NCBI GenBank assembly: GCA_016342715.1
Contig: JAEINW010000001.1
Coordinates: 5,984-69,983, forward strand
Reading direction: 5' to 3'
Source of the DNA: Salinivirgaceae bacterium
Lineage (GTDB): Bacteria; Bacteroidota; Bacteroidia; Bacteroidales; SZUA-534
DNA length: 64,000 nucleotides
Of this stretch, positions 2,735 through 53,717 are shown piece after piece. The notes beneath the pieces are model-generated. The model did not search any database. It was not told where the DNA came from and saw only the letters and a program-made list of their open reading frames with translations. Position 1 is the first letter of the stretch, and every line of letters starts with the position of its first letter. Both the position numbers and the translations under genes were made by a program.

Positions 2735-2735
2735 A

Positions 2736-4710: not shown

Positions 4711-4789
4711 TATATAAAATAAAACTCTAGAGTCTGACATCTTTAGTCTAGAATCTAGAAAAATATAGCCACACAAAATTACTACCTCT

Positions 4790-6141: not shown

Positions 6142-6160
6142 TTTATTTTAAATAAATAGA

Positions 6161-6760: not shown

Positions 6761-6772
6761 ATTTTCATCTAC

Positions 6773-8551: not shown

Positions 8552-8558
8552 AAACAAT

Positions 8559-9353: not shown

Positions 9354-9405
9354 AATTAAAAATGATATTCTGCAAAATCTCATTTTTATTTTTTAATATT
9401 AAGTT

Positions 9406-9413
9406 TACATTTG
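9406..9413 (+). promoter_or_regulatory. Candidate Bacteroidota -7 box (TAnnTTTG)
   Basis: TACATTTG, 40 nt upstream of the ATG at 9453. Confidence 0.4.
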
Positions 9414-9452
9414 AAGAATTAGCATAATTATAATAATAAAATCTGTAATTAA

Positions 9453-10847
9453 ATGACACAAATAAAAAATATCTGTTGTATAGGCGCTGGTTATGTAGGT
9501 GGACCTACTATGGCAGTAATAGCACAAAAATGTCCAGAGATAAATGTTACAGTTGTTGATTTAAATGAACAAAGAATAGCAGATTGGAATGATGATGATT
9601 TGGATAAATTGCCAATCTATGAACCAGGATTAAAAGAGGTAGTAGCTGAAGCTCGAGGCAGAAACTTATTTTTTTCAACTGATGTTGATAAAGCTATCGA
9701 TAATGCAGAAATGATATTTATCTCGGTAAATACCCCAACCAAAACCTACGGTAAAGGAAAAGGAATGGCTGCTGATTTGAAATATATAGAACTTTGTGCT
9801 CGTCAGATTGCAAGAGTATCAAAAACAGATAAAATAGTTATTGAAAAATCAACCTTGCCTGTTCGCACAGCAGAGGCATTACGATCTATCCTTGATAATA
9901 CAAGTTCTGGAGTAAAGTTTCAAATACTGTCAAGCCCTGAATTTTTAGCTGAAGGAACTGCTGTGGATGATTTGCAAAATGCCGATCGTGTTTTAATTGG
10001 TGGGGATCAAACACCAGAAGGACTTGAGGCAATGCAAGCTTTAACAGATATTTATGCACATTGGTTACCTAAAGAAAGAATACTTCAAACAAATGTTTGG
10101 TCTTCAGAATTATCGAAATTAACCGCAAATGCATTTTTGGCACAACGAGTATCTTCAATTAATTCCTTATCGGCACTTTGTGAAAAAACGGAAGCTAATA
10201 TTGAAGAAGTAAGTAGAGCAATCGGAGCTGATAGCCGAATAGGGTCGAAGTTTTTAAAATCATCAGTAGGATTTGGTGGTTCGTGTTTTCAAAAAGACAT
10301 ACTAAATCTTGTTTATATTTGCCAATCTCTAGGACTTAAAGAGGTGGCCGATTATTGGGAGCAAGTAATTATTATGAATGATTATCAAAAACATCGGTTT
10401 GCAGATAATATCATTAAAACATTATATAATACGGTATCAGGAAAAAAAATAGCTTTTTTGGGATGGGCCTTTAAGAAAGATACAAATGATACACGAGAAA
10501 CTGCGGCCATGTATGTGGCTGATATTTTAATGGAGGATAGGGCTACTATTGTGGTTTATGATCCAAAAGTTAAGTATGAACAAATGTTTGCTGATGTTGA
10601 CTACCTGAACACAAGAACAGAGAAAGAAAATAAAGAACTACTTAAACCTCAAACAGATCCTTATGAAGCATGTAAAGATGTTCATGCTATTGCAATTTTA
10701 ACAGAATGGGACGAGTTTAAAGGATACGATTGGCAAAAAATATATGATCATATGATGAAGCCTGCCTTTGTATTTGATGGGCGAAATGTTTTGGATGGAG
10801 AAAAGTTGGAAAAAATAGGTTTTAAATACTATGGAATAGGTAAATAA
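9453..10847 (+). CDS. ugd: UDP-glucose 6-dehydrogenase, long eukaryote-like type
   Basis: [56 protein letters not shown], 464 aa. Confidence 0.9.
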
Positions 10848-10868
10848 CTATTTTCTAAAAACTATTGA

Positions 10869-10900
10869 AAAGAGTTTAATTATTAAAGATTAAACTCTTT
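10869..10900 (+). terminator. Rho-independent terminator after ugd
   Basis: AAAGAGTTTAAT (10869-10880) pairs with ATTAAACTCTTT (10889-10900), followed by a T-rich tail. Confidence 0.6.
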
Positions 10901-10921
10901 TGTCATTACAGATAATACTAT

Positions 10922-10929
10922 TACTTTTG
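10922..10929 (+). promoter_or_regulatory. Candidate -7 box (TAnnTTTG) for the rfb unit
   Basis: TACTTTTG, 32 nt upstream of the rfbA ATG. Confidence 0.4.
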
Positions 10930-10960
10930 CTGCATTAAATCTAAACCAAATTATTATACT

Positions 10961-11833
10961 ATGAAAGGCATTATTCTAGCAGGTGGAAGTGGAACCAGAC
11001 TTTATCCAATAACTAAAGGGGTTTCAAAGCAGTTGTTGCCCATTTATGATAAACCTATGATTTATTATCCGCTATCGGTATTAATGTTGGCAGGTATTAA
11101 AGATATTTTAGTAATATCAACTCCAGAAGATTTGCCAGGGTTTAAACGTTTGCTAGGTTCTGGAGCCGATTGGGGGATTAATTTAGCATATGCAGAACAA
11201 CCTTCTCCCGATGGACTTGCTCAAGCCTTTATTATCGGAGATGAATTTATTGGAGATGATGATGTTTGTTTGGTACTGGGCGATAATATTTTTTACGGTC
11301 ATGGCTTACCAGAATTGTTAAGAAATGCTCGTAAAAATGTAGAAGAAGATAAGCAAGCTACCGTTTTTGGCTATTATGTTAATGACCCAGAACGTTATGG
11401 GGTTGCTGAGTTTGATGAAAATGGTAAAGTAACTTCCATTGAAGAAAAGCCGGAAAATCCGAAATCAAATTATGCGGTGGTTGGTTTATACTTTTATCCT
11501 AATAGCGTAATTAAAGTAGCAAAAAATATTAAACCTTCGCATCGAGGAGAGTTGGAAATTACTACGGTAAATCAAGAATACCTCAAAAAAGATACACTGA
11601 AAGTTGAACTCATGGGTCGTGGTTTTGCTTGGCTTGATACAGGAACTCATGAAAGCTTGATTGAAGCAAGTAACTTTATTGAAACCTTACAAAAGCGAAC
11701 AGGTTTAATGGTGGCATGTCCTGAAGAGATTGCTTATGATCGTGGTTTTATAACAAAAGAACAAGTGGCTAAATTAGCTGAGCCATTGAGTAAGAATGCT
11801 TATGGACAGTATTTGATGAAATTAGGGAAATAG
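10961..11833 (+). CDS. rfbA: Glucose-1-phosphate thymidylyltransferase
   Basis: [34 protein letters not shown], 290 aa. Confidence 0.95.
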
Positions 11834-17030: not shown

Positions 17031-18335
17031 ATGATGAAAAAAATAGTATATATAGGAATGAGTGCGGATATTATTCATCCAGGGCATTTAAATATAATAA
17101 AAGAAGGAGTTAAACTTGGAGAAGTTACTGTAGGTCTATTAACAGATACTGCAATTGCAAGTTATAAAAGATTACCCTATCTAAGTTATGATCAGAGGAA
17201 ATTAATTGTCGAGAGTTTAAAGGGTGTCGATAAGGTGATTCCTCAAGACTCCTTAGATTATGTTCCAAATTTGCTTATTGTAAAACCCCATTTTGTTGTG
17301 CATGGTGATGATTGGAAGGAAGGTATTCAACAAGTTACGAGGCAACGAGTTATAGATACTATTACTGATTGGGGGGGGAAAGTGATTGATATTCCTTATA
17401 CTCAAGGAATTTCATCAACAAAATTGAATGAAAATATTAAAGCAATTGGAACAACCCCTGAAATTAGAATGAAAAGACTTAGACGGTTAATTCAGGCAAA
17501 ACCAATTGTTCGAATCTTAGAATCTCATAGTGGATTAACAGGACTTATTGCTGAGAATATTAAGGTAGATATTAATGGTAAAGAACAAGAGTTTGATGGC
17601 ATGTGGTCAAGTAGTTTGACAGATTCGACATCTAAGGGAAAACCTGATATTGAAGCTGTTGATATTACAACAAGAATGCATGGATTAAATGACACCTTAG
17701 AATGTACTACCAAACCAATAATTTATGATGGAGATACAGGAGGAAAGTTAGAACATTTTGTATTTACTGTTAGGACACTAGAAAGACACGGAATATCTGC
17801 TGTTATTATTGAAGATAAAACAGGATTAAAGAAGAACTCATTGTTTGGAACTGCAGTACCACAGACACAAGACACCATTGAAGATTTTTCAGAGAAGATT
17901 AAAGCTGGTAAAAATGCACAAGTGACAGATGATTTTATGATTATTGCCAGAGTTGAAAGCTTGATTTTAGGTAAATCTGTTGAAGAAGCATTGGAAAGAG
18001 CTCATGCATATGTTGGAGCTGGTGCTGATGCGGTAATGATTCATAGCAAGGAAAAAACAGGTTTGGATATTAAAGAGTTTTGTAAGTCTTTCAGAAAAAG
18101 TAATAAAAATACGCCTATTGTTGTTGTTCCATCAACGTTTAATCATATAACTGAAGAAGAATTTTCAACATGGGGAGTGAATATTGTTATTTATGCTAAC
18201 CATATGTTAAGAGCATCTTATCCAGCTATGGTTGATGTAGCAAAATCTATATTATCGAATGGTAGATCATATGATGCTAATGATAAATGCATGCCTATTA
18301 AGGAAATTCTTGAATTAATACCCGGCACAAAATGA
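17031..18335 (+). CDS. Bifunctional cytidylyltransferase / phosphoenolpyruvate mutase (Fom1-like architecture)
   Basis: N-terminal TagD-like domain (IIHPGH, VDKVIP, HGDDW, GISSTKL). The C-terminal domain carries the PepM signature EDKX5NS ([12 protein letters not shown]). The track start at 16986 is TTG inside the upstream gene; the ATG at 17031 gives MMKKIVYIG. Confidence 0.85.
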
Positions 18336-28776: not shown

Positions 28777-31377
28777 ATGTTTAAAGGAATTATTAAATAC
28801 AATTCATTTTTTTTTACGCTACCAATACTAGCTTCTTTAGCTTTAATATTTAGAGCTTTATTGCCATTTCAGTTAGCTCTTTCAGGCGGAGCTTTTTTTG
28901 TTTTTAGTGTATTTTATCTATTTAAATTTTCATTAAAAGATATTTTCAATGATGTAATAAGTGCATTAAAGAGTGGAATTTTATTCTTTACCGTTGCATT
29001 AATTTTATTGATAGTAATAGCATACTCTAAAACAGGATTATCAATAGTTGAGAAAGAGGCTTTTAGAGTTATATCTAGTATAATAATGTTTGTACTGTTA
29101 TATATTGTATCTAAAAGAAAAGGAATTGTATTCGTAATAAATAAATTTATAGATCTTTTCTTACTGTTTGTTTTAGTAATAGTATTCTATGCTATATATA
29201 GGCTTTCGAATCCTTTATATTCTCTTAGTTTGTTTTCCAGAAGCATTGATTTCAATATGTTCTCGATGTATCTTATAATGACTATAATTTTGATAGCTTA
29301 TAAATTACATAATAAAAAATATTCTAAGTGGAAGATTTACGGATTTAATTTATTTCTTTTTATATTAACAATAATTATTATTTTTTCTTCTTCACGAAGA
29401 GGAATAATTATATTAGGAGCCTTGTTTATTGTAATCCTTTGTGGGTTAATCATTAGGAGTTATCGAAAGACCTCAAAAAAGTTTGGTTTGTATTTTATTC
29501 TACTTACGCTTTTAGTAACTACTTCATTTTTTATTGTTGCAAATAACAATTTAAGATATTATTTAACTACTCAAATTAAATCAAATTCATTTAAGTGGAA
29601 ACTAAATGCAATTGCATCTGATTATAATTCTATTGTAAGTAAAGATCCAAACATCATACATTTTTTTCATCCTTTACCCGTGGGTTCAAAAACTATTAGA
29701 AAAGAAATTTTAAAAAATTATAGTAAAAATCAGGATGTAAATAGTGTATATCAAAGTATAAATAACTTAGCACTTTTTACTAAATCAAGAAAAGAGCTTA
29801 ATTCTTTAATTAAAGAGGCAAAGATAATTCCAGATACTATTTTTACGAAACAAAATACAATACAATTACCTAATTACTACAATTTAGATTATAATTTTAA
29901 ATACAGCTTTATACCTATTAGTTTTGGTAATTGCGAATTAAGATCTTTTACGCCAAACGTTAATGATTCTACTTTTGTTTTTCAATCACTTAAGCCAAAT
30001 GATAGATGTAGAATACTTAGCTTTTTACCACTAAGTGATAGTTCAAGATTTACTTTGGAATTTACTTATTTTGATTCTCAGCAATCAACTAACATTAAAA
30101 TCTTTGATAAGAAAAGAAATCCATTACCATTTGTATTGATGGATACGGTAGTAAATATTGGAGTAAATAAGTTTAAAAAACAATATAGAGTTGAAATATT
30201 TGATGCTGAATCCGATCAACTTTGTATTGAGATTGATTTTGTTGCTCCTTATTTAAAAATGTCAAATGTCAATTGGACGAGACAAAGTTTATCCTCTGAA
30301 GCAAAGTATTCTCCTGTAAAAGCAATTTTTAATAAACAAGATTATAATAAAAGAATTGATTTAATAAAAAAATTACATAATCCTAATCAGCATTTATTAA
30401 TTAATAGAGATTCTTTATTGTTAATCCATGATTTAATTTTAGCCAACGAAGATTTTAGAAATTATGCAAGATGCGAAATTGATAGTATAACAAATACTAA
30501 TGCATTTTTTAATGTAACTGATAATTATGGTGCTGTAATGAAAAAAGTACCAACAATCCCAGGGCAGAAATATGTTGTGTCGTATTATACCAATATTGAT
30601 CCTCAAAATTTGTTTTATAGAGTTGGCAGATACCCTCAGGTTGAACCTGAATTTACTAAAATAGTTGAGCTTAAAAAAGAGTTTACAAAAGAGGGTGAAT
30701 TGTTTTTTGTTAAGGATTCATTTATAGTTGAAGATTGTCTCTCCCTTCGTTCAAGTTTGGTAATTGGGTCAAAAATTAAAGATGATTCTTTAGTTGTTTC
30801 AAAATTTAAATACAAAATATATCCAGATACTAAAGAAATATGTCTTTCTCCTCGTCAATTAAAAGGTGCTCAAGAATTATTCAGAATGGCAAATATTGCT
30901 GATAGACAAAATGCACGATCTATTCAAGATAGTTTATTGAATTTTTATGGGTTAAATTTACCAACAAAAGAAACGGATTTACTTACAGGTCGCTTATTAC
31001 ATTATAAGTTAGGATTTAGTTTGTTTAAAAGATATAATTTAATAGCCAAGTTGATAGGCAATCAATTTAGTTATTTAAATATTTATGGGAAAGTTTTTTA
31101 CTCAGAAGATACGGATTATGGGTATCCACACAATCCTGTGATATCAGCAGTTTTATATTCTGGGGTTGTAGGAGGTATTCTATATTTATGGTTTTTGGTA
31201 TTAGCAATAGTTAAGTATATAAAAGGAAGGAAGAAATTTTCAATATTTTTTATTTTGTTCATTATTGCTTTTGCATTCTCATTTTTTAGTGGAAATAGTC
31301 ACTTCTCAATTCCAATTTTTACATTGCTATCTTTTATTCCATTTCTTAATACTAAAACAATAACTAATAATGACTAA
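28777..31377 (+). CDS. Wzy_C/O-antigen-ligase-like membrane protein with a ~530-aa extracytoplasmic insert
   Basis: N-terminal transmembrane bundle with FSSSRRG. The C-terminal YGYPHNPVISAVLYSGVVGG plus transmembrane segments is collinear with the equivalent part of 37425..39371. Residues ~257-785 are non-hydrophobic. Confidence 0.55.
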   Translation: MFKGIIKYNSFFFTLPILASLALIFRALLPFQLALSGGAFFVFSVFYLFKFSLKDIFNDVISALKSGILFFTVALILLIVIAYSKTGLSIVEKEAFRVISSIIMFVLLYIVSKRKGIVFVINKFIDLFLLFVLVIVFYAIYRLSNPLYSLSLFSRSIDFNMFSMYLIMTIILIAYKLHNKKYSKWKIYGFNLFLFILTIIIIFSSSRRGIIILGALFIVILCGLIIRSYRKTSKKFGLYFILLTLLVTTSFFIVANNNLRYYLTTQIKSNSFKWKLNAIASDYNSIVSKDPNIIHFFHPLPVGSKTIRKEILKNYSKNQDVNSVYQSINNLALFTKSRKELNSLIKEAKIIPDTIFTKQNTIQLPNYYNLDYNFKYSFIPISFGNCELRSFTPNVNDSTFVFQSLKPNDRCRILSFLPLSDSSRFTLEFTYFDSQQSTNIKIFDKKRNPLPFVLMDTVVNIGVNKFKKQYRVEIFDAESDQLCIEIDFVAPYLKMSNVNWTRQSLSSEAKYSPVKAIFNKQDYNKRIDLIKKLHNPNQHLLINRDSLLLIHDLILANEDFRNYARCEIDSITNTNAFFNVTDNYGAVMKKVPTIPGQKYVVSYYTNIDPQNLFYRVGRYPQVEPEFTKIVELKKEFTKEGELFFVKDSFIVEDCLSLRSSLVIGSKIKDDSLVVSKFKYKIYPDTKEICLSPRQLKGAQELFRMANIADRQNARSIQDSLLNFYGLNLPTKETDLLTGRLLHYKLGFSLFKRYNLIAKLIGNQFSYLNIYGKVFYSEDTDYGYPHNPVISAVLYSGVVGGILYLWFLVLAIVKYIKGRKKFSIFFILFIIAFAFSFFSGNSHFSIPIFTLLSFIPFLNTKTITNND

Positions 31378-32257
31378 GATATCTATCATAGGCTCTGATT
31401 CTTTCATAGCCACTCAATTTCACAATTCAATCGAAAACGAGGAAAATATAAAATTATTTTCCCGTCAGTCATCAGGCAAGCAAAATGAAATTGTAAAAGA
31501 TTTATTTCAAATTACAGCAAATAATTTCATAGGAGCTGAAGTTGTAATCAATTTTGCTGCAATAGTTCATCAGCCAAAACTTAAAGATGAGGCGATATAC
31601 AAAAAGGTAAATACAGAATTACCCATTCATTTAGCTAAAGAAGCAAAAAAAGCAGGAGTGAAACACTTTATTCAAATGAGTACTGTTGCAGTTTACGGGA
31701 ATGTTACATCAATTGATGAAAATATGCTTGAGAATCCAGTAAATATTTATGGTAAATCCAAACTGAATGCTGATAACGCTTTGTTAGCTATGCAGAATGA
31801 AAACTTTAAAGTGAGTATTATTCGTCCTCCAATGGTATATGGTGGTGGAAATGCTCCAGGTAATTTAATGAGTTTAATCAGGGCAGCTCAAAAAGGAATT
31901 CCAATGCCATTCAAAGGAGTGAATAATGCAAGAGATTTCATTCATGTAAGTAACTTGGTGCAGGCATTAAATTTAGTTGTTGCTAATACAATTACCGGAG
32001 TTGCTATTCCAACCGATAATAGTCCGGTATCAACTGAAGCAATTATAAATTTTGTAAAACTTCATTCGTCGAAGCGAGTTCGGCAGATTCAAATTCCTAA
32101 ATTTGCACATGTTCTTGTGAAAAAGATGCTTCCTTCCATTTATACTAAAGTCTTTGGTGATTTAAGAGTGCAATGTAATTTGCCTGATACTTATCAACCT
32201 AAATATGGAATTGAAGAAGGATTAAAAGAGATGGTTGCAACGATTGAAGTCATTTAA
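31370..32257 (+). CDS. NAD-dependent epimerase/dehydratase-family protein
   Basis: SDR fold with YGKSKLNAD (YxxxK). The N-terminal glycine motif is degenerate (IIGSDSFIA). Confidence 0.6.
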   Translation: MTKISIIGSDSFIATQFHNSIENEENIKLFSRQSSGKQNEIVKDLFQITANNFIGAEVVINFAAIVHQPKLKDEAIYKKVNTELPIHLAKEAKKAGVKHFIQMSTVAVYGNVTSIDENMLENPVNIYGKSKLNADNALLAMQNENFKVSIIRPPMVYGGGNAPGNLMSLIRAAQKGIPMPFKGVNNARDFIHVSNLVQALNLVVANTITGVAIPTDNSPVSTEAIINFVKLHSSKRVRQIQIPKFAHVLVKKMLPSIYTKVFGDLRVQCNLPDTYQPKYGIEEGLKEMVATIEVI

Positions 32258-32306
32258 TTATTTCTTTTTCACCTGAACAAGGCTTAAAAGAAGTTATGGA
32301 ATCGGT

Positions 32307-33092
32307 TTAAAACAACAAGGCAAACCCCTTATCTCTTTTCTTATATTTTTCAAGTTCCAGTTTGAAAAACTTGCTTTGTTGCAAACATATAAAATCCCTA
32401 AAAATAGTGAGATCTTCAAGTTCTTCCGTTTTGTTAAGAGCCTCAATATAGGCAGCTCGGTCTTCTGTAAATATTTTCAGTAAGGGTTCGTTGTGGTAAA
32501 ATTGAATGTAATTCATTAACAATCTGGCAGTTCTTCCGTTTCCATCGCCAAAAGGGTGAATGTTTATAAAGTTATAATGAAAATCGGCAGCCAGTTTTAA
32601 TACATCATTTTCATTAACATTAGCTAATTTATCATTTATATTTTTAAGTAGTTGGTTCAACAGGGATTCAACTTTTTTAAAATCGGGAAAATATTTTTTA
32701 TCCACATAAACCTGAGCAAGTCGCAAATCACCTTTTGAAGTATCAAAAGAATCACCCATGGAGTTTACTTTGCCTCCAGTATGTTGCATTACTATTGCAG
32801 CAGTCTCTTTCAAAAAATCAATAGATAGGCTACATTTTGCCTGCGCTTTTTCCTTTATAAATAAGAAGGCATTATAATGGTCTTTTACCATTAAGTGGTC
32901 TGTCAATGGTTTGCCATTTGCAGTAATGCCATTTTCCAATAATATTATAGTGTCATTTTCACTAAGTGAGCAGCCTTCAATTTTGGTAGAATGGTAAACC
33001 ATAGAAATCATAGATAATTTCTCATAATCGATTACCTGATCAAGGTTTAGATCAAGATATTTTTTTCTTAATAATTCCAATTCTTTCCACAT
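32307..33092 (-). CDS. Fic-family protein (putative AMPylase) with an N-terminal auto-inhibitory motif
   Basis: Fic motif HPFGDGNGRTARLL. STKIEG matches the (S/T)xxxE(G/N) inhibitory-helix motif. Confidence 0.9.
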   Translation of the reverse strand: MWKELELLRKKYLDLNLDQVIDYEKLSMISMVYHSTKIEGCSLSENDTIILLENGITANGKPLTDHLMVKDHYNAFLFIKEKAQAKCSLSIDFLKETAAIVMQHTGGKVNSMGDSFDTSKGDLRLAQVYVDKKYFPDFKKVESLLNQLLKNINDKLANVNENDVLKLAADFHYNFINIHPFGDGNGRTARLLMNYIQFYHNEPLLKIFTEDRAAYIEALNKTEELEDLTIFRDFICLQQSKFFKLELEKYKKRDKGFALLF

Positions 33093-33177
33093 GTGTGCAA
33101 AATTAGGATAAAATATATTGTTGATGGTAATATAAGTGGTTATTTTTGCATTTCTCTTTCTATAATTCGTTAATATT

Positions 33178-33340
33178 CGTGGCTAAAATATTTTTACTAT
33201 GATATTTTTTACCTTATACTTTTTATAGCAGCGCTAGGCTTAACCTATTTAGTTCGTTTCTTAGCCCTCAAAAAATACATAATTGATAACCCCAATGAGC
33301 GCAGTTCACATACCATTCCAACATCGTGGTGGTGGGTTGG
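33178..33340 (+). pseudogene. Decayed duplicate of the 5' end (plus ~20 nt upstream) of the wecA-like gene at 36419
   Basis: Aligns by eye at about four-fifths identity to 36398-36560. A 1-nt deletion after the ATG (33199) gives a stop at codon 10. The corrected frame reads YLILFIAALGLTYLVRFLALKKYIIDNPNERSSHTIPT and then diverges. Confidence 0.75.
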
Positions 33341-33502
33341 TAAAAGTCAATTAATCCCAAAATTGTCATTAGACTTCATCTAATTTGCAATTCGATAAAG
33401 AATATCTAAACCTTTCAACGATGCTGAAAGGTAAGATTTTCTAGATACGTCTTACGGCTGTTGTCATTGAAGATTTTGCAAATCTCTAATGACAAATCTC
33501 GG

Positions 33503-34696
33503 TTAATATAAAAAGCCAAACATCCATAAAGGGATTGTTTTGTTAACACCCGTTTCTATATTGTCTTTTACTAAATAGGCATCGCTTATTGTATTTATTT
33601 GTTGTCGTGTTTTATTTTTTCCTCCTACTTCAAAAGTATATTTATCGTCAATTAAAAAATCACCGTTTTTTGGTAAATTTATTTTGTGTTGGTATGACAA
33701 CTGATTTATGAAGAAGGTTTCCCTCAGGTTTCCGCTTACTGCATTTTCTTCAGCAATGGAATATATTAAGTTAGTGTTTCTTAGGTGCAATTTTTCTGGT
33801 TTACTTAATTGGCTAACACCTTTGTTGCTTTGGTGTAGTTGGATTAATAAATGAGCCTTTTCTAAAAGCACCAAAGCTTTTATCATAAAGGGTCGAGAGA
33901 GTTCAATTTTTTCGCTTAGTTTACTAATGTTGGGTGTGAATGGAACACTTGTGGCAACTGAAAAAAGCAGTTTTTTAAGTTTAACAATATGGTTATAATC
34001 CAGATTTTCAATGGCACCCAAATCAACATCTAATATAAGTTGAATGGTATTCATTACTTTTTGATAGTAGTCTTCAATACCTTCAATAAAATATGGATAC
34101 TGGCCGTATTTTAGATATTTATTGAATTCAAATACCGGTTTGATTTTTTTTAAAATATCAAAGGATATTTCTTGATGGTTTTCTAATATTTCATCCAATT
34201 TTAATTCAGGTAGTTTAATTTGACTTTCTAATTCAATAAACTCACGGAGCGATAATTCTGGTAATTCAAAAGTGATGGCTCTTCTGCTTAAATCAGATTC
34301 AGCTTGAAAAATATTGAGTATGGATGAGGAGGTGAAAAGTACCTGCAAGCTTGGAAAATCATCATAAATTAGCTTTAATTCTCGCGACCAATTGGGGTAT
34401 TTGTGAACCTCATCTATTAATAAATGTTTACCATTATTAATAACGAATTGTTCAGCCAGACTGTAAAGCGTATTTTTTGTAAAGAAGAGATCATCCATGG
34501 CAAAATAGAGTACAGAATTATCTATAGGTAAAAATTTTTTAGCATACTGCAAAAGTAGGGTGGTTTTGCCGATACCTCGTGCACCTTTAATCGCAATTAA
34601 ACGGTGCTTAAATATGTTCTCACTTATTAGAAACCGTTGAAAAGTTAAGTTTATTTGTTCAATTTTGCGGTTCGATTTTATAAGTAATTTTTCCAT
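33503..34696 (-). CDS. AAA-family ATPase (AAA_14 + DUF4143 type, COG1373-like)
   Basis: Walker A GARGIGKTTLLLQ, Walker B LLIDEVHKYP, 397 aa. Confidence 0.75.
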   Translation of the reverse strand: MEKLLIKSNRKIEQINLTFQRFLISENIFKHRLIAIKGARGIGKTTLLLQYAKKFLPIDNSVLYFAMDDLFFTKNTLYSLAEQFVINNGKHLLIDEVHKYPNWSRELKLIYDDFPSLQVLFTSSSILNIFQAESDLSRRAITFELPELSLREFIELESQIKLPELKLDEILENHQEISFDILKKIKPVFEFNKYLKYGQYPYFIEGIEDYYQKVMNTIQLILDVDLGAIENLDYNHIVKLKKLLFSVATSVPFTPNISKLSEKIELSRPFMIKALVLLEKAHLLIQLHQSNKGVSQLSKPEKLHLRNTNLIYSIAEENAVSGNLRETFFINQLSYQHKINLPKNGDFLIDDKYTFEVGGKNKTRQQINTISDAYLVKDNIETGVNKTIPLWMFGFLY

Positions 34697-34858
34697 ATGT
34701 TGTAATTATATATTTACAAATATAGTAAATAATGTTATTCGTTAATAACAAAAAGGGTTTATTATTGAAAATTATAAATAACATTCAATTTATTTTGTTT
34801 AATCTGTATGCTTAATTTTTTGTTTGTTAGTTTGATAATATCTTCCTCTACTCTTTTT

Positions 34859-34920
34859 AAATTCGTGAAAATTCGTGTACTTAGCGCAGCGTTCTTAGGA
34901 GCGTAGCGAATAAATTCGTG
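34859..34920 (+). repeat. Three AAATTCGTG direct repeats around a GC-rich core
   Basis: Copies at 34859-34867, 34869-34877 and 34912-34920. Core is TACTTAGCGCAGCGTTCTTAGGAGCGTAGCGAA. Lies 17-78 nt upstream of the ATG at 34937. Confidence 0.5.
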
Positions 34921-34936
34921 CTTAAAGAATATTATT

Positions 34937-36322
34937 ATGCATTTAAACCAGATACTGACTTCTGGAGAAAACGAACAAACAGAATTTAAGTTAATTTGGA
35001 AAACAGATTGGCTTAAAACTATTTGTGCATTTTCAAATACCAAAGGTGGTGTTTTAATAATTGGTGTTTCTGATACTGGTGAAATTGAAGGGATTAAAAA
35101 TAGTAAGAAACTTATTGAAGATATTCCAAATACCATTTTAAACCAACTTGCAATTATTTGTTCAGTGGAATTAAAATTGGTTGAAAATAAAGACATTATC
35201 CTTGTTGAGATAAAACCATCTTATGCACCGGTGTCTTTTAGAGGTGTTTTTTATGCTAGGAGTGGTGCTGTTACATTGGCCTTGAATGGGGGCGAATTAT
35301 CCAAATTTTTACTTAAGAAATATGGAAAAACCTGGGATGATGTTATTGTAGATAATTTCACAATTCATGATATCAATATTGAAACTATTGAGTTTTTTAA
35401 ATCATTGGCTAAAAATCGTATGCCATTTTTGGAAAAAGAAAGTGATTTGAAAGTACTATTGGAGAAACTAAACCTTTTTGATGGAGAATACTTAAAGCGA
35501 GCTGCTGTTTTACTTTTTGGCAAAAATCCACAAAAGTTTTTTATTCAATCGCATTCAAAAATTGGAAGATTCAAATCTGAAACAAATATTATTTCAAGTG
35601 ATGTTGTGGAGGGTAATCTTTTTCAACAAGTTCAAGAGATACTTACTGTTTTACGAAATAAGTATTTAAAAAATGAGATTAGCTTTGAAGGGATATATCG
35701 AAAAGAGGAACTTGAGTATCCTGAAGCTGCATTACGAGAGGCAATAATAAATGCATTAATTCATCGCGACTATACAAATAATTCAAATTTGCAGATTAAA
35801 GTGTATGACTCTAAGTTGGTTTTGACAAATGGAGCTGATTTGCCAAGTCAATTGAATATAAATGATTTAGATAAACCCCATCCTTCTTTACCAACAAATC
35901 CCACTATTGCAGCAATTTTTTATAAGGCAGGTCTTATTGAAAACTGGGGGCGAGGAACTATAAATATGATTGAGGAGTGCATTGCTAAAGGCTTACCCAT
36001 TCCGGAGTATAAATATGAATTTACAACTTTTCAAATTGTATTTCATAAAAATGACACTGTAAATGACACTGTAAATGACACTGTAAATGACACTGTAAAT
36101 GACACTGTAAATGACACTAAAGAAAATCGTAATGAATTGATATTGAATTTAATCAAGAGTAATAATAAGATAACGTTACTTGAGATGGCCTCAGTATGTG
36201 GTGTGTCACTTCGAACAATTACAAGAGATATTGAAAAATTTAAAAAAATGGGTGTTTTGATCCGAGAGGGCAGTGATAAAACAGGACACTGGAAAGTAAA
36301 AAGCAACGAAGTATCTAAATGA
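34937..36322 (+). CDS. COG2865-type putative regulator (AlbA_2/Schlafen-like + ATPase-like + wHTH), paralog of 11834..13210
   Basis: GENEQTEFKLIW...FSNTKGGVLIIG, LREAIINALIHRDY, C-terminal ITLLEMASVCGVSLRTITRDIEKFKKMGVL. Has an (NDTV)5 linker. Confidence 0.7.
   Translation: MHLNQILTSGENEQTEFKLIWKTDWLKTICAFSNTKGGVLIIGVSDTGEIEGIKNSKKLIEDIPNTILNQLAIICSVELKLVENKDIILVEIKPSYAPVSFRGVFYARSGAVTLALNGGELSKFLLKKYGKTWDDVIVDNFTIHDINIETIEFFKSLAKNRMPFLEKESDLKVLLEKLNLFDGEYLKRAAVLLFGKNPQKFFIQSHSKIGRFKSETNIISSDVVEGNLFQQVQEILTVLRNKYLKNEISFEGIYRKEELEYPEAALREAIINALIHRDYTNNSNLQIKVYDSKLVLTNGADLPSQLNINDLDKPHPSLPTNPTIAAIFYKAGLIENWGRGTINMIEECIAKGLPIPEYKYEFTTFQIVFHKNDTVNDTVNDTVNDTVNDTVNDTKENRNELILNLIKSNNKITLLEMASVCGVSLRTITRDIEKFKKMGVLIREGSDKTGHWKVKSNEVSK
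36050..36118 (+). repeat. Perfect 12-bp tandem repeat, 5 full copies plus 9 nt, in-frame
   Basis: AATGACACTGTA x5 followed by AATGACACT. Encodes NDTV x5 + NDT. Confidence 0.95.
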
Positions 36323-36418
36323 TTAATAAATATGATTTTTTCATTATAAGCAGAACGCTTCCAAAGAACTGATACTTTAATAATTTATTTTCTAATTTGT
36401 GACTTATATATTTTAACT

Positions 36419-37402
36419 ATGATTATCTTTTACCTTATACTTTTTATTTCAGCTATTGGCTTAACCTACTTGGTTCGTTTATTGGCCATCAAAAAGAACA
36501 TTTTTGATAATCCCAACGAGCGTAGTTCACATACCATTCCAACACCACGCGGAGGTGGTTTGGCTATTGTTATTGTCTGGTTTTTAGGCTTAGGCTATTT
36601 GTTTTGGGCTGGGCAAATAGAGCAAAACCTGTTTTTGGCTTTACTATCAGGACTTGTTTTAGCTATAGTGAGTTTATTGGATGATATTATGGATTTGAAA
36701 CCAACTATTAGAATGTTGGCTCAAAGTATATCTGCTGTAGGAGCATTATATTTCCTTGGAGGGTTTCATATCTTACCAGAACTAAATAATCCGATTTTAT
36801 TTTGGCTAATAAATATTGGTGTTTTTATTGGAATTATCTGGTTCATTAATCTTTATAACTTTCTAGATGGTATTGATGCCTATGCATCGCAAGAAGCTAT
36901 TTTTGTTGCTGCTGGTTTGTTAATATTTACAGGGAATCCCATTCTAGGCTTATTAATCGTGGCCGTAGGAGGGTTCTTAGTTTGGAATTGGCCCAAAGCT
37001 AAAATATTTATGGGTGATGTTGGTAGTACACAATTGGGATTTATTTTAGTGGTTTTAGGTATTTATTTTCATAATAAAATAGAGTTGGATATTTTTAGTT
37101 GGCTGGTGCTGACATCTATATTTTGGTTCGACGCTTCTTATACACTTTTTAGGAGATGGAGGAATAAGGAAAAATTAAGTGTAGCTCATAAAAAGCATGC
37201 TTATCAGAGGCTTATTCAAGGAGGCTTTTCTCATTTGAAGGTAGATGTGCTTGCTATTGGATTAAACAGTCTTTTAATAGGCTTGGTTTATTTAAATAAA
37301 TTATATTTTTCCACTGGAATTTTATTGTTGTTAATTGTTATCGGTTTGCTTTTCTTTGTCAATAGTAGAGTGGATAAATTTTTTCCATTTAAAAATGATT
37401 AA
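36419..37402 (+). CDS. WecA/MraY-family (GT4 polytopic) UDP-HexNAc:undecaprenyl-phosphate HexNAc-1-P transferase
   Basis: NFLDGIDAYAS, MGDVGSTQLGF, ~10 transmembrane segments, 327 aa. Confidence 0.85.
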   Translation: MIIFYLILFISAIGLTYLVRLLAIKKNIFDNPNERSSHTIPTPRGGGLAIVIVWFLGLGYLFWAGQIEQNLFLALLSGLVLAIVSLLDDIMDLKPTIRMLAQSISAVGALYFLGGFHILPELNNPILFWLINIGVFIGIIWFINLYNFLDGIDAYASQEAIFVAAGLLIFTGNPILGLLIVAVGGFLVWNWPKAKIFMGDVGSTQLGFILVVLGIYFHNKIELDIFSWLVLTSIFWFDASYTLFRRWRNKEKLSVAHKKHAYQRLIQGGFSHLKVDVLAIGLNSLLIGLVYLNKLYFSTGILLLLIVIGLLFFVNSRVDKFFPFKND

Positions 37403-37424
37403 TTGATAAAGTACTTTAAAAAAT

Positions 37425-39371
37425 ATGATAGCTCTTAAAAATTTAGATAAAAACAAATTATTAATAAATACATTTCAATTTACCCTGACCTTATGGATTT
37501 TTCGTATGGTTTTACCAGGTGTTAAGTATGTTTTTATTCCTACATTTTTGTTTTTTATTTTGTTAATTATTTCTACACAATCAAAATCAATCTTTAGAAG
37601 AGCCTATATTTTTGAGTTCCTAAAAACATTCAATCCATTATTAATTTTAGGAGTGTTCTTTTTCTTGGGGATTATAATCTCTGGTGAATTTTATAGTAGG
37701 GCATTTAAGGACATTTTTGAATATCTAATAAATCTATCCTTTTTAGTAATCTTTTTTGCTCTTACGCATCGTTCAAGAAAACAAGATGGCTTTTTAGCTG
37801 TTTTTAGAAGATTTGCTAAAATAATAAAAGGATCTTCTGTTATTATAGCAGTTCTGGGACTAACAAAATTTTCTTTACAACTTCTAAATTGGGACATGCC
37901 TCTTGACACTCCTTTTGGAACAGCTTTCAATCAGGATGTCAACTTTTATGCACTATATTCATTTCTTGGAGTAATTAGTTTTTATCCGCGCCTGGCAAAA
38001 GAAAACTTATTTAAAAAACGAATTACCGTTCAAATTTCTTTAGTAATATTGTTACTGAATATTATATTTTCTTTTTCATTCAGGTCTTTCTTTATACTAG
38101 GCTTTATTTTGCTAGTATTGATGTTTTTTCAAGTTTATATTATTATTAAAAGACATTCCATTCGAGTAAAATTATTAGCCCGAAATTTACGCTTACTGAC
38201 TGTTTTGTTGGTTTTGTTTTTTGTATCTGTTTTTTATGGAATTAATCAAAGTGAATCCTTATATCAAAATTTGGTTGAAATATATAATGAAGAAAACGCT
38301 ATTGATTTTAGAAATCAAGAAATAAAAGCGATAGCTCAAAACACATTCAATATAGATAAATGGGAGTATGCATTTGAAATCTTTCAATCTCAAAATTTAA
38401 TACAAAAACTATTTGGTAGAGGATTTAATTATTTTGAGGCTTACGGATTGAAATTTAATGGAGATAAAAACATTTATGATTATCCTCACAATCCCGTATT
38501 GTCAGCTTTATTATACTCTGGTATTATAGGTGCAATTTTTATCTTATTTTTCATATTCACATCTTTTTATTATTCTGTTTTATATTTTAAAAAGTATCCA
38601 TTATTTTCAATGATGCTTTTTGTAAGCCTCATGTTTGTATCCTTTAGCGGTAACAGTTTATTTAGTGTGCCCATCTTTTTATTTTTGTTTTCATTGTCTT
38701 TTTTAATTCGACATCAGGAAATTTCAGAACTAAAATTAGTGGTAAATATTAAAAAACCAGGAAGTAAATTTATAAAGGAGACATTCGACTATATTGTAGC
38801 TTCCATAGCCTTAGTAGCACTTTCTCCAATACTTATTATTTTAAGTTTCTTCATTGGCTTCACCATGGGATGGCCTGTAGTTTTTAGTCAGAAGCGTATT
38901 GGCCAAAATGGAAAATCATTTCGATTGCATAAATTTCGTAGTATGAAAAAATCAAAATCAAATACAACGGTTGCTGCACAAGAAATTAATAGAATAACTC
39001 GTTTAGGTAGAATTATGCGAAAGTACAAATTAGATGAGTTACCAGAATTATGGAATATTATAAGAGGGGATATGAGTTTTGTGGGTCCTAGACCAGATGT
39101 TCCCGGTTATGCCGATAAATTATCTGGAGAAGATAGAATTATTTTGGACTTAAAACCAGGACTTACTGGCGCAGCTTCATTAAAATATATGCACGAAGAA
39201 GAATTACTTGCTAAACAAGAAGATCCACAAAAATATAACGATGAAGTGATTTTCCCTGATAAAGTATATGTAAATAAAAAGTATATGGAAAAGTGGAATC
39301 TTTGGTTGGATATTAAAATTATTATTTATACTGCCATGGGTAAATCTATGGATGAAAATTATTTTTTATAG
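37425..39371 (+). CDS. Fusion protein: Wzy_C/O-antigen-ligase-like membrane domain + PglC/WbaP-C-type monotopic phosphoglycosyl transferase
   Basis: Residues 1-~430 are polytopic with YDYPHNPVLSALLYSGIIG. Residues ~443-648 carry the bacterial sugar transferase motifs KFRSMKK and LDELPELWNIIRGDMSFVGPRPDVPGY. The ORF is uninterrupted. Confidence 0.75.
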   Translation: MIALKNLDKNKLLINTFQFTLTLWIFRMVLPGVKYVFIPTFLFFILLIISTQSKSIFRRAYIFEFLKTFNPLLILGVFFFLGIIISGEFYSRAFKDIFEYLINLSFLVIFFALTHRSRKQDGFLAVFRRFAKIIKGSSVIIAVLGLTKFSLQLLNWDMPLDTPFGTAFNQDVNFYALYSFLGVISFYPRLAKENLFKKRITVQISLVILLLNIIFSFSFRSFFILGFILLVLMFFQVYIIIKRHSIRVKLLARNLRLLTVLLVLFFVSVFYGINQSESLYQNLVEIYNEENAIDFRNQEIKAIAQNTFNIDKWEYAFEIFQSQNLIQKLFGRGFNYFEAYGLKFNGDKNIYDYPHNPVLSALLYSGIIGAIFILFFIFTSFYYSVLYFKKYPLFSMMLFVSLMFVSFSGNSLFSVPIFLFLFSLSFLIRHQEISELKLVVNIKKPGSKFIKETFDYIVASIALVALSPILIILSFFIGFTMGWPVVFSQKRIGQNGKSFRLHKFRSMKKSKSNTTVAAQEINRITRLGRIMRKYKLDELPELWNIIRGDMSFVGPRPDVPGYADKLSGEDRIILDLKPGLTGAASLKYMHEEELLAKQEDPQKYNDEVIFPDKVYVNKKYMEKWNLWLDIKIIIYTAMGKSMDENYFL

Positions 39372-50924: not shown

Positions 50925-53717
50925 CTAATGCAGTTTCTCTGCTAAAAATTGTCCGGTATAAGATTTCTTGCATTTTGCTAAATCTTCAGGTGTACCTTCA
51001 AAAACTAATTCTCCTCCCTTATCTCCACCTTCTGGACCAAGATCAATCACCCAATCGGCATTCTTAATAATTTCATGATTGTGTTCAATAATAAGTACCG
51101 TATTCCCTTTTTTAATGAGCGCATTAAACGATTTTAACAGGTTATTAATATCATGAAAATGCAGACCCGTAGTAGGTTCATCGAAAATAAAAAGAATGGG
51201 CTGATTGGAACGTTCTTTGCCAAGAAATGAAGCTAATTTTATGCGTTGGCTTTCCCCACCACTTAAAGTGCTCGATGATTGACCAAGCTGAACATATCCC
51301 AAACCAACATCTATTAATGTTTGAAGCTTCTTATTTATTTTTGTGCTTATTGTAGTTGGTTTTTCATTAAAGAATTCAAAGGCGTCATTAACGGTCAATT
51401 GCAAAATATCATGAATGCTTTTCGATCGGAATTTAACATCTAAAACATCTTGTTTAAAACGTTTTCCTTTGCAACTTTCGCATTCCAATTCAATGTCGGC
51501 CATAAATTGCATTTCCACTTTTATGCTTCCTTCACCTTGACATTCATCGCAACGACCGCCATCTACATTAAACGAAAAGTGTGCGGGTTTAAAACCCATA
51601 ACCTTGGCCGACTTTAATTCTGAGAATAGTTTTCTTATTTCATCATATGCTTTAATGTAGGTCACTGGATTTGATCTGGACGATCGTCCAATGGGATTTT
51701 GATCTACAAATTCCACATCGCTTAAAAGATTTAAATCGCCCGATAAACGGTCGAAATGACCTGATTCATCACTATGCCCACCATATCTTTTCTTTAAGGA
51801 AGTGTATAATACTTTTTTTATAAGTGATGATTTTCCGGAACCTGAAACCCCGCTTACAACTGTTAAAATATTTAGCGGAATCTTGAGACTAAGGTTTTTT
51901 AAATTGTTTTCTCTAGCCCCTTCAATCATTAAATAATTGTTCCATTTTCTGCGAATTTTTGGAACCTCAATAAACAATTCGTTGGTTAAATATTTCGTTG
52001 TTAAGCTGTTTTTATTTCCAATTAATTCATCCTGATTTCCTTGAAATACGACTTCACCACCATGGGTTCCTGCCAATGGACCAATGTCAATAACTTGATC
52101 AGCAGCTCTAATAATATCTTCGTCATGCTCTACCACAACTACCGTATTGCCCAACTTTTGCAAATCGCGTAATACTTTGATTAAAAGCTGCGTGTCTTTT
52201 GAATGCAACCCAATGCTGGGTTCATCTAAAACATAAAGAGATCCCACCAAACTGCTACCCAATGAAGTTGCTAAATTAATACGTTGTGATTCTCCACCCG
52301 AAAGGGTAGAAGATACCCTGTTTAAGGTCAAATATCCCAAGCCAACATCTTGTAAAAACTGAATTCTGTTTTTTATTTCAAGAAACAAACGTTCGGCAAC
52401 TTTTTTATCGTGATTATCTAGCTTTATCGATGAAACAAATATTGATAAGTCTTTTATAGGAAGGTTAACTAATTCTGTAATTGACTTAGCACCCACCTTA
52501 ATATAGTTGGTTTCTTTTTTTAGTCGGGTTCCTTTGCATTCGGGGCAAGTCGTTCTTCCTCGGTATCTCGAAAGCATTACTCGATATTGAATTTTATAGG
52601 CTTTTTCTTCTAAATACTGAAAAAAACGATGCAATCCATGAAAATGTTTATTCCCCGTCCATAACAGTTCCATTTCATCGGCTGAAAGCTGATTTACTGG
52701 TTTATGAATGGGAAAATTATACTTGTCGGCACTGTAAATTAATTTGTTTTTCCATTCTGCCATTTTTTCTCCACGCCAACATGCAATGGCATCGTCGTAA
52801 ATTGAAACACTTTTGTTGGGAATCACCAAATCGGGATCAATTCCGATAGTCATTCCATAGCCTTCGCATCGCGGACAAGCGCCTAAGGGATTATTGAAAC
52901 TAAAGGTATGTATGGTGGGTTCTTCAAAAGAAATTCCATCGGCTTCAAATTGACTTGAAAAATGCTGTTCAATAGGAGTGTCTCCATCAAGAATTCTAAT
53001 TATACAAGTTCCATGCCCCTCAAAAAAACTTGTTTGTACAGAATCAGCAATTCGGCTCAAGGTGTCTTGTTCTTGATTGAAAATTATTCGATCAATTACA
53101 ATATTAATGGCTTCCTTGGTTTTGAAATCAGTAAATTCTTCAATTTTGACTACTTCATTTTTAAATTCAATTCTTGAAAATCCTTGCTGTTTTAAAACTT
53201 CAAGAGTTTGTTCCAAAGATCTATCCTTTTTATGATTTAGCGGCGAAAGAATTAATGCTTTCGTGTTTTCAGGGAATTTATTTAAAAAATTAATAATATC
53301 TTCTGGGTGATGCTTTTTTACAAGATTTCCAGAAATGGGTGAATATGTTTTTCCAATGCGGGCATATAATAACTTTAAATAATCGTAGATTTCAGTGGAT
53401 GTGCCTACTGTAGATCGCGGATTTAGGGTATTTACTTTTTGTTCGATAGCAATTGCCGGTGGAATACCCTTAATAAAATCAACCTCTGGTTTATGAACCC
53501 TGCCCAAAAATTGACGCGCATACGATGATAAACTTTCAACATATCTGCGTTGCCCTTCGGCATAAAGCGTATCAAAGGCCAATGATGATTTTCCGCTACC
53601 CGAAAGACCCGTAATTACAACCAATTGATTTCTAGGTATATTTAAGCTAATATTTTTGAGGTTGTGAACTTTAGCTCCTTTTATTTCAATATATTTTTCT
53701 TTTGTCATATGCGCCAT
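50925..53717 (-). CDS. uvrA: Excinuclease ABC subunit A
   Basis: GLSGSGKSSLAFDT, two LSGGESQRI signatures, Zn-finger Cys pairs, 930 aa. Confidence 0.95.
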   Translation of the reverse strand: MAHMTKEKYIEIKGAKVHNLKNISLNIPRNQLVVITGLSGSGKSSLAFDTLYAEGQRRYVESLSSYARQFLGRVHKPEVDFIKGIPPAIAIEQKVNTLNPRSTVGTSTEIYDYLKLLYARIGKTYSPISGNLVKKHHPEDIINFLNKFPENTKALILSPLNHKKDRSLEQTLEVLKQQGFSRIEFKNEVVKIEEFTDFKTKEAINIVIDRIIFNQEQDTLSRIADSVQTSFFEGHGTCIIRILDGDTPIEQHFSSQFEADGISFEEPTIHTFSFNNPLGACPRCEGYGMTIGIDPDLVIPNKSVSIYDDAIACWRGEKMAEWKNKLIYSADKYNFPIHKPVNQLSADEMELLWTGNKHFHGLHRFFQYLEEKAYKIQYRVMLSRYRGRTTCPECKGTRLKKETNYIKVGAKSITELVNLPIKDLSIFVSSIKLDNHDKKVAERLFLEIKNRIQFLQDVGLGYLTLNRVSSTLSGGESQRINLATSLGSSLVGSLYVLDEPSIGLHSKDTQLLIKVLRDLQKLGNTVVVVEHDEDIIRAADQVIDIGPLAGTHGGEVVFQGNQDELIGNKNSLTTKYLTNELFIEVPKIRRKWNNYLMIEGARENNLKNLSLKIPLNILTVVSGVSGSGKSSLIKKVLYTSLKKRYGGHSDESGHFDRLSGDLNLLSDVEFVDQNPIGRSSRSNPVTYIKAYDEIRKLFSELKSAKVMGFKPAHFSFNVDGGRCDECQGEGSIKVEMQFMADIELECESCKGKRFKQDVLDVKFRSKSIHDILQLTVNDAFEFFNEKPTTISTKINKKLQTLIDVGLGYVQLGQSSSTLSGGESQRIKLASFLGKERSNQPILFIFDEPTTGLHFHDINNLLKSFNALIKKGNTVLIIEHNHEIIKNADWVIDLGPEGGDKGGELVFEGTPEDLAKCKKSYTGQFLAEKLH

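Follow-up and report, generated by a model that had tools for sequence, protein, structure and literature searches.

How does a small group of defence-type genes come to lie inside a polysaccharide locus, next to a broken copy of one of that locus's own genes? The question is raised by a 64,000-nucleotide (nt) stretch of DNA from a Salinivirgaceae bacterium (GenBank assembly GCA_016342715.1, contig JAEINW010000001.1, positions 5,984 to 69,983), hereafter the window. Genes for polysaccharide synthesis run along its plus strand from about 9.4 to 46 kb. Only two genes in this run lie on the minus strand, and both are found between an epimerase-family gene and a WecA-family gene (wecA). This gap holds three genes: a Fic-domain gene (Fic), an ATPase gene (ATPase1), and a Schlafen-like gene (SLFN). 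The gap is a mosaic, its genes have separate histories, and comparable insertions recur at the same place in related loci. On balance, the region is probably a recombination hotspot upstream of wecA, to which independent modules were added serially by wecA-anchored recombination, rather than one island. We infer the recombination mechanism, as well as any anti-phage role.

The left boundary of the hotspot is the NAD-dependent epimerase/dehydratase gene (31370-32257, plus strand; Pfam PF01370). The right boundary, and the proposed recombination anchor, is the intact WecA-family (Glycos_transf_4) gene (36419-37402, plus strand; PF00953). Between them lie Fic (32307-33092, minus strand; 261 amino acids (aa); PF02661), ATPase1 (33503-34696, minus strand; 397 aa), and SLFN (34937-36322, plus strand; 461 aa). 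A preliminary description of the sequence had named the same three genes, and open reading frames (ORFs) and Pfam matches confirm them. It had also seen no integrase or transposase. Indeed, none of the three genes matches such a family in Pfam; the other ORFs of at least 40 aa in 32258-36418 are short, overlapping and unscanned.

One genome per species and the JGI metagenomes were scanned with WecA, and 164 related loci entered the spacer and motif searches. The closest relatives of Fic, ATPase1, and SLFN are on three different metagenome contigs (L163, L161, and L169), with synonymous divergences (dS) of 0.79, 0.16, and 0.58, respectively; flanking genes give 1.4 or are saturated. The three genes are not one system, because they never occur together as a set in the related loci.

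ATPase1 and its upstream intergenic region (33503-34939) share 93% DNA identity with L161, where ATPase1 directly abuts wecA. The intergenic region itself (34697-34936), which holds three AATTCGTG motifs (at 34860, 34870, and 34913) and the leader copy L2, is 84-92% identical to the ATPase1-wecA intergenic sequence of L161 up to the ATG. Homology to L161 ends at 34939, in the ATG that starts wecA in L161 and SLFN in the window; identity is then 75% in wecA. The neighbouring wecA, Wzy-transferase fusion, and aminotransferase genes are all saturated in dS against L161. Identity along the tract reaches 95-100% inside ATPase1 and 77-92% at its ends, a pattern that would fit allele replacement by homologous recombination. 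At the other end of the gene, DNA homology begins at, or no more than about 10 nt from, the ATPase1 stop codon (33503) in every comparison.

SLFN tells a different story. Its closest relative, P0121 in L169, is 81% identical in aa sequence and lies directly upstream of wecA. There it is preceded by a third kind of AAA_14/DUF4143 ATPase and a wecA fragment. DNA homology between the window and L169 is limited to 34913-36292, and against a dS of 0.58 for SLFN the adjoining wecA has 1.39. In the window, the join between SLFN and ATPase1 falls within a wecA-type leader of about 27 nt just 5' of the SLFN ATG. Both breakpoints thus fall in the wecA leader or start: L161 homology runs up to the ATG, and L169 homology starts at 34913. 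The preliminary description had taken the ATPase and COG2865 genes (33341-36397) for a single inserted block. That claim fails: the ATPase1 tract (33503-34939) matches L161, and the SLFN cassette (34913-36292) matches L169.

Fic adds a third history. Its orthologue in L163 is 85% identical and occupies the same hotspot, with a dS (given above) that compares with 1.43 for ATPase1 in the same genome pair. Gene order differs in L163, where other cassettes separate Fic from ATPase1. A phage or mobile-element origin was considered separately and rejected: scans of viral contigs gave one partial ATPase match (51%) and none for SLFN.

What of the broken gene copy? A wecA 5' pseudo-fragment, hereafter the stub, spans codons 1-50 at 33199-33340 on the plus strand, from a pseudo-ATG at 33199. 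It is preceded by a wecA promoter-proximal region (33141-33198, plus strand; read from the sequence) with a TATTTTTG box and the leader copy L1 (ATAATTCGTTAATATTCGTGGCTAAAATATTTTTACT). When 33050-33450 was compared by BLASTN with 36250-36750, the stub and its leader (33175-33340) matched 36395-36563 at 139 of 169 positions (82%; three gap columns; E 2e-41), the sole such match within the window. Similarity begins about 25 nt upstream of the live wecA ATG, in the leader copy L3 (AATTTGTGACTTATATATTTTAACT; 36394-36418, plus strand), which is homologous to L1. The duplicate proposed in the preliminary description is thus significant, with the extent 33175-33340. Its retained box is present as well, although at 33141-33148 and so one base off the 33142-33149 first given. 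The same description ended the homology after ...SSHTIPT; the end is indeed abrupt, but similarity continues past a 2-nt deletion (nt 127-128 of the stub) through RGGGL to 33340. The other small deletion, of 1 nt at nt 5, creates the predicted stop at codon 10 (frame 0 reads MIFFTLYFL and then a stop).

The stub differs from live wecA by 24 substitutions, distributed 5/1/18 over the three codon positions; 17 of them are synonymous, and all seven replacements are conservative. This third-position skew departs from a uniform spread (p = 3.6e-5). It also exceeds what duplication followed by decay should leave, about 44% if the stub alone decayed (p = 0.002). Because the differences are mostly third-position and synonymous, the stub is probably a displaced, diverged allele that once worked. 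The skew thus bears out the earlier suggestion that the 5' copy is the scar of an older wecA allele, and argues against duplication in place with subsequent decay. Most of the divergence would have arisen while both copies were coding, with only the two small deletions since then.

The most durable competitor is such an in-place duplication (tandem or segmental) of the wecA 5' end, with neutral decay of the upstream copy and independent arrival of the cargo. We consider it unlikely. The two window copies are indeed each other's closest relatives: their 5' ends are 81% identical, against no more than 73% to the wecA 5' end of any other genome. Moreover, the stub in L003 differs from wecA with no codon-position skew (14/10/12), as neutral decay predicts. 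(The stub in L002 gives 7/7/18; an origin as a once-working allele seems to hold for the window stub, not for every stub.) But the skew in the window is too strong even for decay of the stub alone, and a bacterial pseudogene dead for long enough to reach about 17% substitution would be expected to carry more than two small indels. The stub leader (...ATTCGTGGCTAAAATATTTTTACTATG) also resembles the wecA leaders of L001, L003, L005, and L163 more closely than the leader of the live copy does.

Scars of this kind recur. Among related loci, 104 have enough upstream sequence for the comparison, and 86 of these carry an epimerase gene upstream of wecA. The two genes are adjacent (within 350 nt) in 72 of the 86, across Bacteroidales and Campylobacterota, and are split by inserted genes in the remaining 14. 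The split pair reported in the preliminary description is thus a departure from a widespread arrangement. The insertions examined are mostly defence or toxin-antitoxin genes: HigB with a partner gene; an additional AAA_14/DUF4143 ATPase; a PD-(D/E)XK transposase-family gene; Phd/YefM-YoeB; a Phd-family antitoxin with a ParE-family toxin; and HEPN with a nucleotidyltransferase. The gaps of L063 and L067 contain ordinary polysaccharide genes, and L163 has both PIN-DUF2281 and HEPN-nucleotidyltransferase pairs. Arcobacter and Sulfurimonas, both Campylobacterota, account for several of the interrupted pairs, so that two phyla share this junction as a hotspot.

wecA stubs accompany several of these insertions. 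In L002, codons 1-45 are followed by a different AAA_14 ATPase; in L003, codons 7-62 are followed by HigB and its partner gene and then by ATPase1; in L163, the leader and codons 1-54 abut the ATPase1 stop, and a second, heavily decayed remnant, its coding part weakly significant, lies beside Fic; and in L169 the fragment covers codons 15-110. The stubs end at different points from locus to locus (around codons 32, 45, 50, 54, 62, and 110), and all keep the leader, the NPNERSSHTxPTPRGGG-coding patch of wecA, or both. None of these intervals gave a match to an integrase or transposase. Fic shows the same scar signature in L163: the last 49 codons of the gene are present a second time, and a HEPN-nucleotidyltransferase pair separates this duplicate from the full-length copy.

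The L163 contig (JGI Ga0534203_007330; 6.5 kb) reads, in window orientation: epimerase gene; wecA stub; ATPase1; the duplicated Fic 3' fragment with HEPN-nucleotidyltransferase; Fic; the decayed wecA remnant with DUF2281-PIN; and a partial second ATPase1 at the contig end. This is the window hotspot with more layers. ATPase1 occupies the same gap in L001, L005, L161, L162, and L163 and is relocated in L003 (78-93% aa identity), and is by these comparisons a clade-wide resident of the gap.

Could the insert be the remnant of a site-specific integrative element that targeted the wecA 5' end, carried a replacement 5' end, and has since lost its integrase? The architecture recalls integrative islands at gene ends (of the type that targets tRNA and tmRNA genes), in which a partial direct duplication of the target leaves one intact and one truncated copy flanking the insert. 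Here, too, the insert has the truncated old end on one side and the intact, restored gene on the other, and is flanked by about 165 nt of directly repeated sequence; the arrangement recurs in several genomes. Unlike such islands, however, the locus yields no integrase match, either among the three window genes or among the scanned or Pfam-called genes of L002, L003, L005, L161-L163, and L169. Nor is there a constant core site, since the stub breakpoints scatter from about codon 32 to codon 110, and the content between the repeats is a mosaic of at least two histories. We regard this alternative as decidedly unlikely.

The spacer between the stub and ATPase1 bears on the same alternative. In these 163 nt (33341-33502, no strand assigned) the preliminary description had pointed to an inverted repeat and a hairpin just beyond the break, and both exist. 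The arms of the repeat (33356-33373 and 33485-33502) are 18 nt long and 83% complementary. Seven comparable pairs occur in the same 261 nt, the level expected by chance, which counts against an element end. The right arm abuts the ATPase1 stop codon, and its last 10-20 nt or so (from 33482/33493) align with the flanks of both L163 copies of ATPase1. The spacer has no second copy within the window or among the 164 loci. The repeat was therefore rejected as the end of a miniature or other mobile element: no second copy was found, and comparable repeats are locally common. The hairpin (33410-33432) has 8 base pairs and is the sole good terminator-like site on the plus strand of this stretch. A search of the spacer and the leaders against Rfam gave nothing at E up to 1.

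ATPase1 is of the gene type that accompanies every wecA stub found. The protein combines an AAA_14 ATPase domain, a winged-helix region, and a DUF4143-like carboxyl-terminal domain. The preliminary assignment as an AAA/DUF4143 ATPase stands in its first half, with AAA_14 (PF13173) at 89.4 bits; DUF4143 (PF13635) reaches 19.4 bits, under the cutoff of 28.1. The Walker residues (G38-x-x-G41-x-G43-K44-T45 and D95-E96) are invariant in 35 homologues. In the homologue alignment D346, E356, and K362 are invariant as well, and the carboxyl-terminal region has a beta-rich core in the AlphaFold model. This model (pLDDT, the predicted local distance difference test, 84) shows an AAA+ fold, and a fold search with it returned generic AAA+ proteins only (clamp loader, DnaA, RuvB). 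A specific structural homologue was sought and none was found: the PDB sequence search was empty and the fold search stayed generic. Screening for defence systems used the PADLOC hidden Markov models (HMMs) only. ATPase1 matches three models for PDC-S01 (PDLC04789, 1.6e-25; PDLC04787, 3.1e-18; PDLC04790, 5.9e-18) over about 65-73% of the profiles, making it a single-gene candidate of this type. PDC-S01 is described as an ATPase fused to a PD-(D/E)xK domain, and is the fourth commonest "defence" call in prokaryotes, with validation pending for most such candidates (PMC12988326).

A further explanation is that the AAA_14/DUF4143 ATPase-nucleases themselves drive the events as selfish or homing-like genes, breaking the DNA in the vicinity of wecA and being copied in. 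We think this very unlikely. Several associations speak for it. Every wecA stub found (window, L002, L003, L163, and L169) adjoins an AAA_14/DUF4143 gene or is one or two small genes away; these genes represent three subfamilies in both orientations; and ATPase1 alleles have been exchanged between lineages, as its dS to L161 indicates. DUF4143 is classed within the PD-(D/E)XK nuclease superfamily (PMC3424549). In Sulfurimonas (L057 and L144), the gap between the epimerase gene and wecA contains a 40% homologue of ATPase1. But genes of the PDC-S01 type are among the commonest accessory genes of prokaryotes (PMC12988326), so that chance adjacency in a small hotspot is expected. Homologues with 57-60% identity lie in unrelated contexts, and the breakpoints are not site-specific. 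The rise of identity inside the gene in the comparison with L161, with a drop at both ends, fits ordinary allele replacement by homologous recombination instead.

A general link between ATPase1 homologues and wecA was also proposed and rejected. It is true for homologues of at least 78% identity and for one 66% homologue beside polysaccharide genes, not at 57-60%, where the neighbours are a spermine synthase gene, extracytoplasmic-function (ECF) sigma/FecR genes, BacA, or a SNF2 helicase gene. Two of the distant homologues (57-59%) were noted in L166 (Algoriphagus litoralis, 6131-8194) and L165 (Prolixibacteraceae, 7001-11397). One adjoins BacA (undecaprenyl-diphosphatase), and a Glycos_transf_4 gene lies 2 kb from the other; undecaprenyl-phosphate metabolism may be a weak common link, or the placement may be coincidental. 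The Sulfurimonas homologue (about 2071-5335) has the same carboxyl terminus as ATPase1, ...IPLWLFGFIY, and shares its gap with three toxin-antitoxin-type modules. The ATPase-wecA association crosses phyla.

The last alternative, a single defence or abortive-infection system made up of Fic, ATPase1, and SLFN, is highly improbable: the genes are neighbours and all match PADLOC models of defence-associated proteins, but ATPase1 occurs without Fic or SLFN in L005 and L161 (the contigs L001 and L162, which are partial, show neither), Fic and ATPase1 are together in L163 but in a different order and split by other cassettes, SLFN accompanies a different ATPase in L169, and both dS values and closest relatives differ among the three.

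Serial, wecA-anchored addition could have proceeded as follows. In the ancestral state, the epimerase gene would have adjoined wecA. ATPase1 would have become resident in the gap in this clade, and single-gene modules would then have been added singly: Fic and SLFN in the window; toxin-antitoxin pairs and other AAA_14 ATPases in relatives. Conserved sequence at wecA (the leader, the NPNERSSHTxPTPRGGG-coding patch, and the downstream genes) would let incoming DNA pair with that of the recipient, with homologous recombination on the wecA side and an illegitimate join on the other. Such a process would be homology-facilitated illegitimate recombination; single crossover of a fragment that had circularised would be equivalent. 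Because the incoming piece would carry its own wecA start, the old start of the recipient would be pushed upstream and left as a dead stub. At least two layers of this kind may be present in the window: the 50-codon stub at 33199-33340, and the leader-plus-ATG now fused to SLFN (34913-34939), in effect a zero-codon stub. The cargo genes presumably act independently: Fic as a self-inhibited AMPylase, ATPase1 as a nucleotide-dependent probable nuclease, and SLFN as a nucleic-acid-binding regulator or effector.

A mechanism akin to this has been proposed for serial displacement of effector-immunity modules in type VI secretion systems (T6SS), which leaves orphan genes, and has been hypothesised for Rhs loci (PMC5361080). 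The likeness to displacement of Rhs and contact-dependent inhibition (CDI) C-termini, and to the T6SS effector-immunity arrays of Vibrio cholerae (PMC5361080), extends to several features. In each, a conserved portion of a gene serves as the homologous anchor, and a new module comes with a variable part of its own. The piece that it displaces remains adjacent as an orphan; repeated events build layers; and one join is homologous and the other illegitimate, as proposed. Here, however, what is displaced comes from a housekeeping-type glycosyltransferase and comprises its 5' end, with promoter, leader, and 30-110 codons, not the 3' end of a toxin or an immunity gene. The orphans are also dead (the window stub is frameshifted) and without evident use, and the cargo is unrelated to the function of the anchor gene. 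The window and these arrays are examples of the same process, not of the same family.

Defence islands and other hotspots flanked by core genes offer a second comparison. There, too, variable, fast-turnover single-gene modules and toxin-antitoxin pairs lie between two conserved genes, content varies, and dedicated mobility genes are missing. The window differs in that its hotspot is inside a polysaccharide (O-antigen or capsule-type) cluster, with the same junction recognisable in two phyla. No experimentally validated system includes any of the three window genes. Both the processes and the gene families are known ones, well resolved in this case, and the growth of the hotspot is fairly ordinary.

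Several points weigh against the hotspot reading. Insertion has left no compositional mark: G+C content is 0.26-0.34 in the insert and 0.23-0.37 in the flanks, without a step, so that such a mark was ruled out. Window WecA is 69-74% identical in aa sequence to its relatives, with dS saturated against all except L169. Scans with WecA, of one genome per species and of the JGI metagenomes, gave none above about 73% identity, and the best other UvrA is only 84% identical to that of the window (50925-53717). Look-ups of the exact WecA, ATPase, and UvrA proteins of the window gave no record. Because the collections hold no closer genome, the pre-insertion (empty) state of this lineage is not directly visible, and the order and direction of events, like the roles of donor and recipient, may differ from the course proposed above. 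Gene conversion between the stub and live wecA could inflate their similarity. The 93% match to L161 could have another source: L161, a 9-kb contig without a housekeeping gene, could come from a close relative in which the polysaccharide flanks were swapped. Finally, of the systems tested in E. coli B, four gave protection against T7, T5 or T4, and the one PDC-S01 representative tested was not one of these (bioRxiv 10.1101/2024.09.26.614923).

What, then, do the cargo genes do? Fic, ATPase1, and SLFN are all of types that are enriched in defence islands. The preliminary description had spoken of defence-type content that it could assign to no named system, and the same holds after the PADLOC search, which gives candidate labels only (PDC-S04/SoFic-like for Fic, PDC-S01 for ATPase1). 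The domain make-up agrees with these HMM matches. The candidates, however, were themselves found by their embedding in defence islands, the SoFic profile is half covered, and DUF4143 is below threshold. Because the same site in relatives holds toxin-antitoxin pairs, "defence-type" seems, by context, a reasonable label for a putative function.

The Fic domain scores 63.8 bits in Pfam, against a cutoff of 24. Its catalytic motif, HxFx(D/E)GNGRxxR, is present as HPFGDGNGRTAR. The inhibitory motif, STKIEG, forms residues 35-40, amino-terminal to the Fic core on the same polypeptide, and both motifs of the preliminary description are thus found in one protein. Class II Fic proteins are reportedly defined by such an inhibitory motif, (S/T)xxxE(G/N), amino-terminal to the core. 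With a catalytic motif and an inhibitory motif in cis, the protein is a candidate self-inhibited (class II-type) Fic AMPylase. No separate small antitoxin ORF adjoins the gene in the ORF list. The best PADLOC model is PDC-S04 (4.3e-30; profile positions 6-200 of 227); the SoFic model PDLC03963 (E 4.2e-22) is matched only at positions 60-256 of 361, about half of its length.

SLFN combines, by Pfam, an SLFN_AlbA_2 domain, HATPase_c_4, and a DeoR-type winged helix-turn-helix (HTH), the COG2865 type. The family is spread across phyla at about 50% identity and is often mislabelled "RecG". A structural search gave a sole match, 3lmm, an uncharacterised protein. Within the gene, a perfect 12-nt tandem repeat (AAATGACACTGT, about 5.5 copies; 36049-36118) is in frame and encodes (NDTV)5 in the linker before the HTH. 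The repeat is shorter and imperfect in the L169 orthologue, which indicates that copy number varies.

The locus has wider meaning if the hotspot reading is right. Defence-type genes could accumulate without a mobility gene, at breakpoints resolved to a few bases, through recombination anchored in a conserved neighbour that leaves datable stubs. Surface-polysaccharide loci, which are under phage-driven diversification, may double as landing pads for defence genes, a consideration useful for mining metagenome-assembled genomes and for typing polysaccharide loci. A caution for annotation also follows: a neat three-gene "island" can represent three unrelated events.

Two further features stand out: the constant company of AAA_14/DUF4143 genes at wecA stubs, and a clade-specific leader with AATTCGTG repeats. 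In this leader motif, AATTCGTG occurs two or three times at a spacing of about 10 nt, GCTAAAAT comes after it, and an ATG lies 20-60 nt further downstream. The motif stands before wecA, whether live or a stub, and before SLFN; L001 has it before the Wzy-transferase gene as well. In the window it lies at 34860-34920, 33163-33184, and 36394-36401. In relatives it lies at 466-492 and 2680-2755 (L001), 9904-9955 (L003), 9954-9980 and 17681-17698 (L005), and 464-480, 1301-1327, and 5268-5284 (L163). Clusters of the motif occur in 5 of the 164 sequences searched, all of them Salinivirgaceae-type loci. The motif could be an operator, an element of the 5' untranslated region, or a recombination substrate. 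At the speculative end, and with little probability in our estimate, the wecA leader with its repeats and the first 50 or so codons might be an integrase-free capture site that stacks single-gene defence and toxin-antitoxin cassettes, perhaps with the aid of the AAA_14/DUF4143 ATPase-nucleases found at every stub, and puts the cassettes under the promoter of the polysaccharide locus. If true, this would amount to an integron-like cassette acceptor in a surface-polysaccharide locus, run on homologous and illegitimate recombination.

Some features of the surroundings deserve mention. A 144-aa minus-strand ORF at 34762-35196 was treated as spurious; it runs across the ATPase1 upstream region, where the intergenic DNA is conserved with L161, and into the first part of SLFN. 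Upstream of the epimerase gene, an 866-aa protein (28777-31377) has no Pfam match. Its carboxyl terminus aligns with the Wzy-like region of a 648-aa fusion 3' of wecA (37425-39371), in which a Wzy_C (O-antigen-ligase/polymerase-like) membrane domain is joined to a Bac_transf initiating sugar transferase (58% identity in relatives). The locus thus encodes two initiating transferases, WecA and Bac_transf.

Relatives have a second small hotspot at the next junction downstream, where wecA meets the Wzy_C-Bac_transf gene; in the window this junction is empty (22 nt, 37403-37424). It holds a HicA toxin with a UPF0150-like partner in L005 (11029-11444), a nucleotidyltransferase with a HEPN-like gene in L161 (4944-5761), and 1.3 kb in L001 (1488-2822). 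In L003 (13811-18735), the wecA stub, HigB and its partner, ATPase1, and a second AAA_14/DUF4143 ATPase have a block of wecA, Wzy-transferase, and aminotransferase genes on their left. This block lies to the right of ATPase1 in the window and in L161, a block rearrangement around the same repeated sequences.

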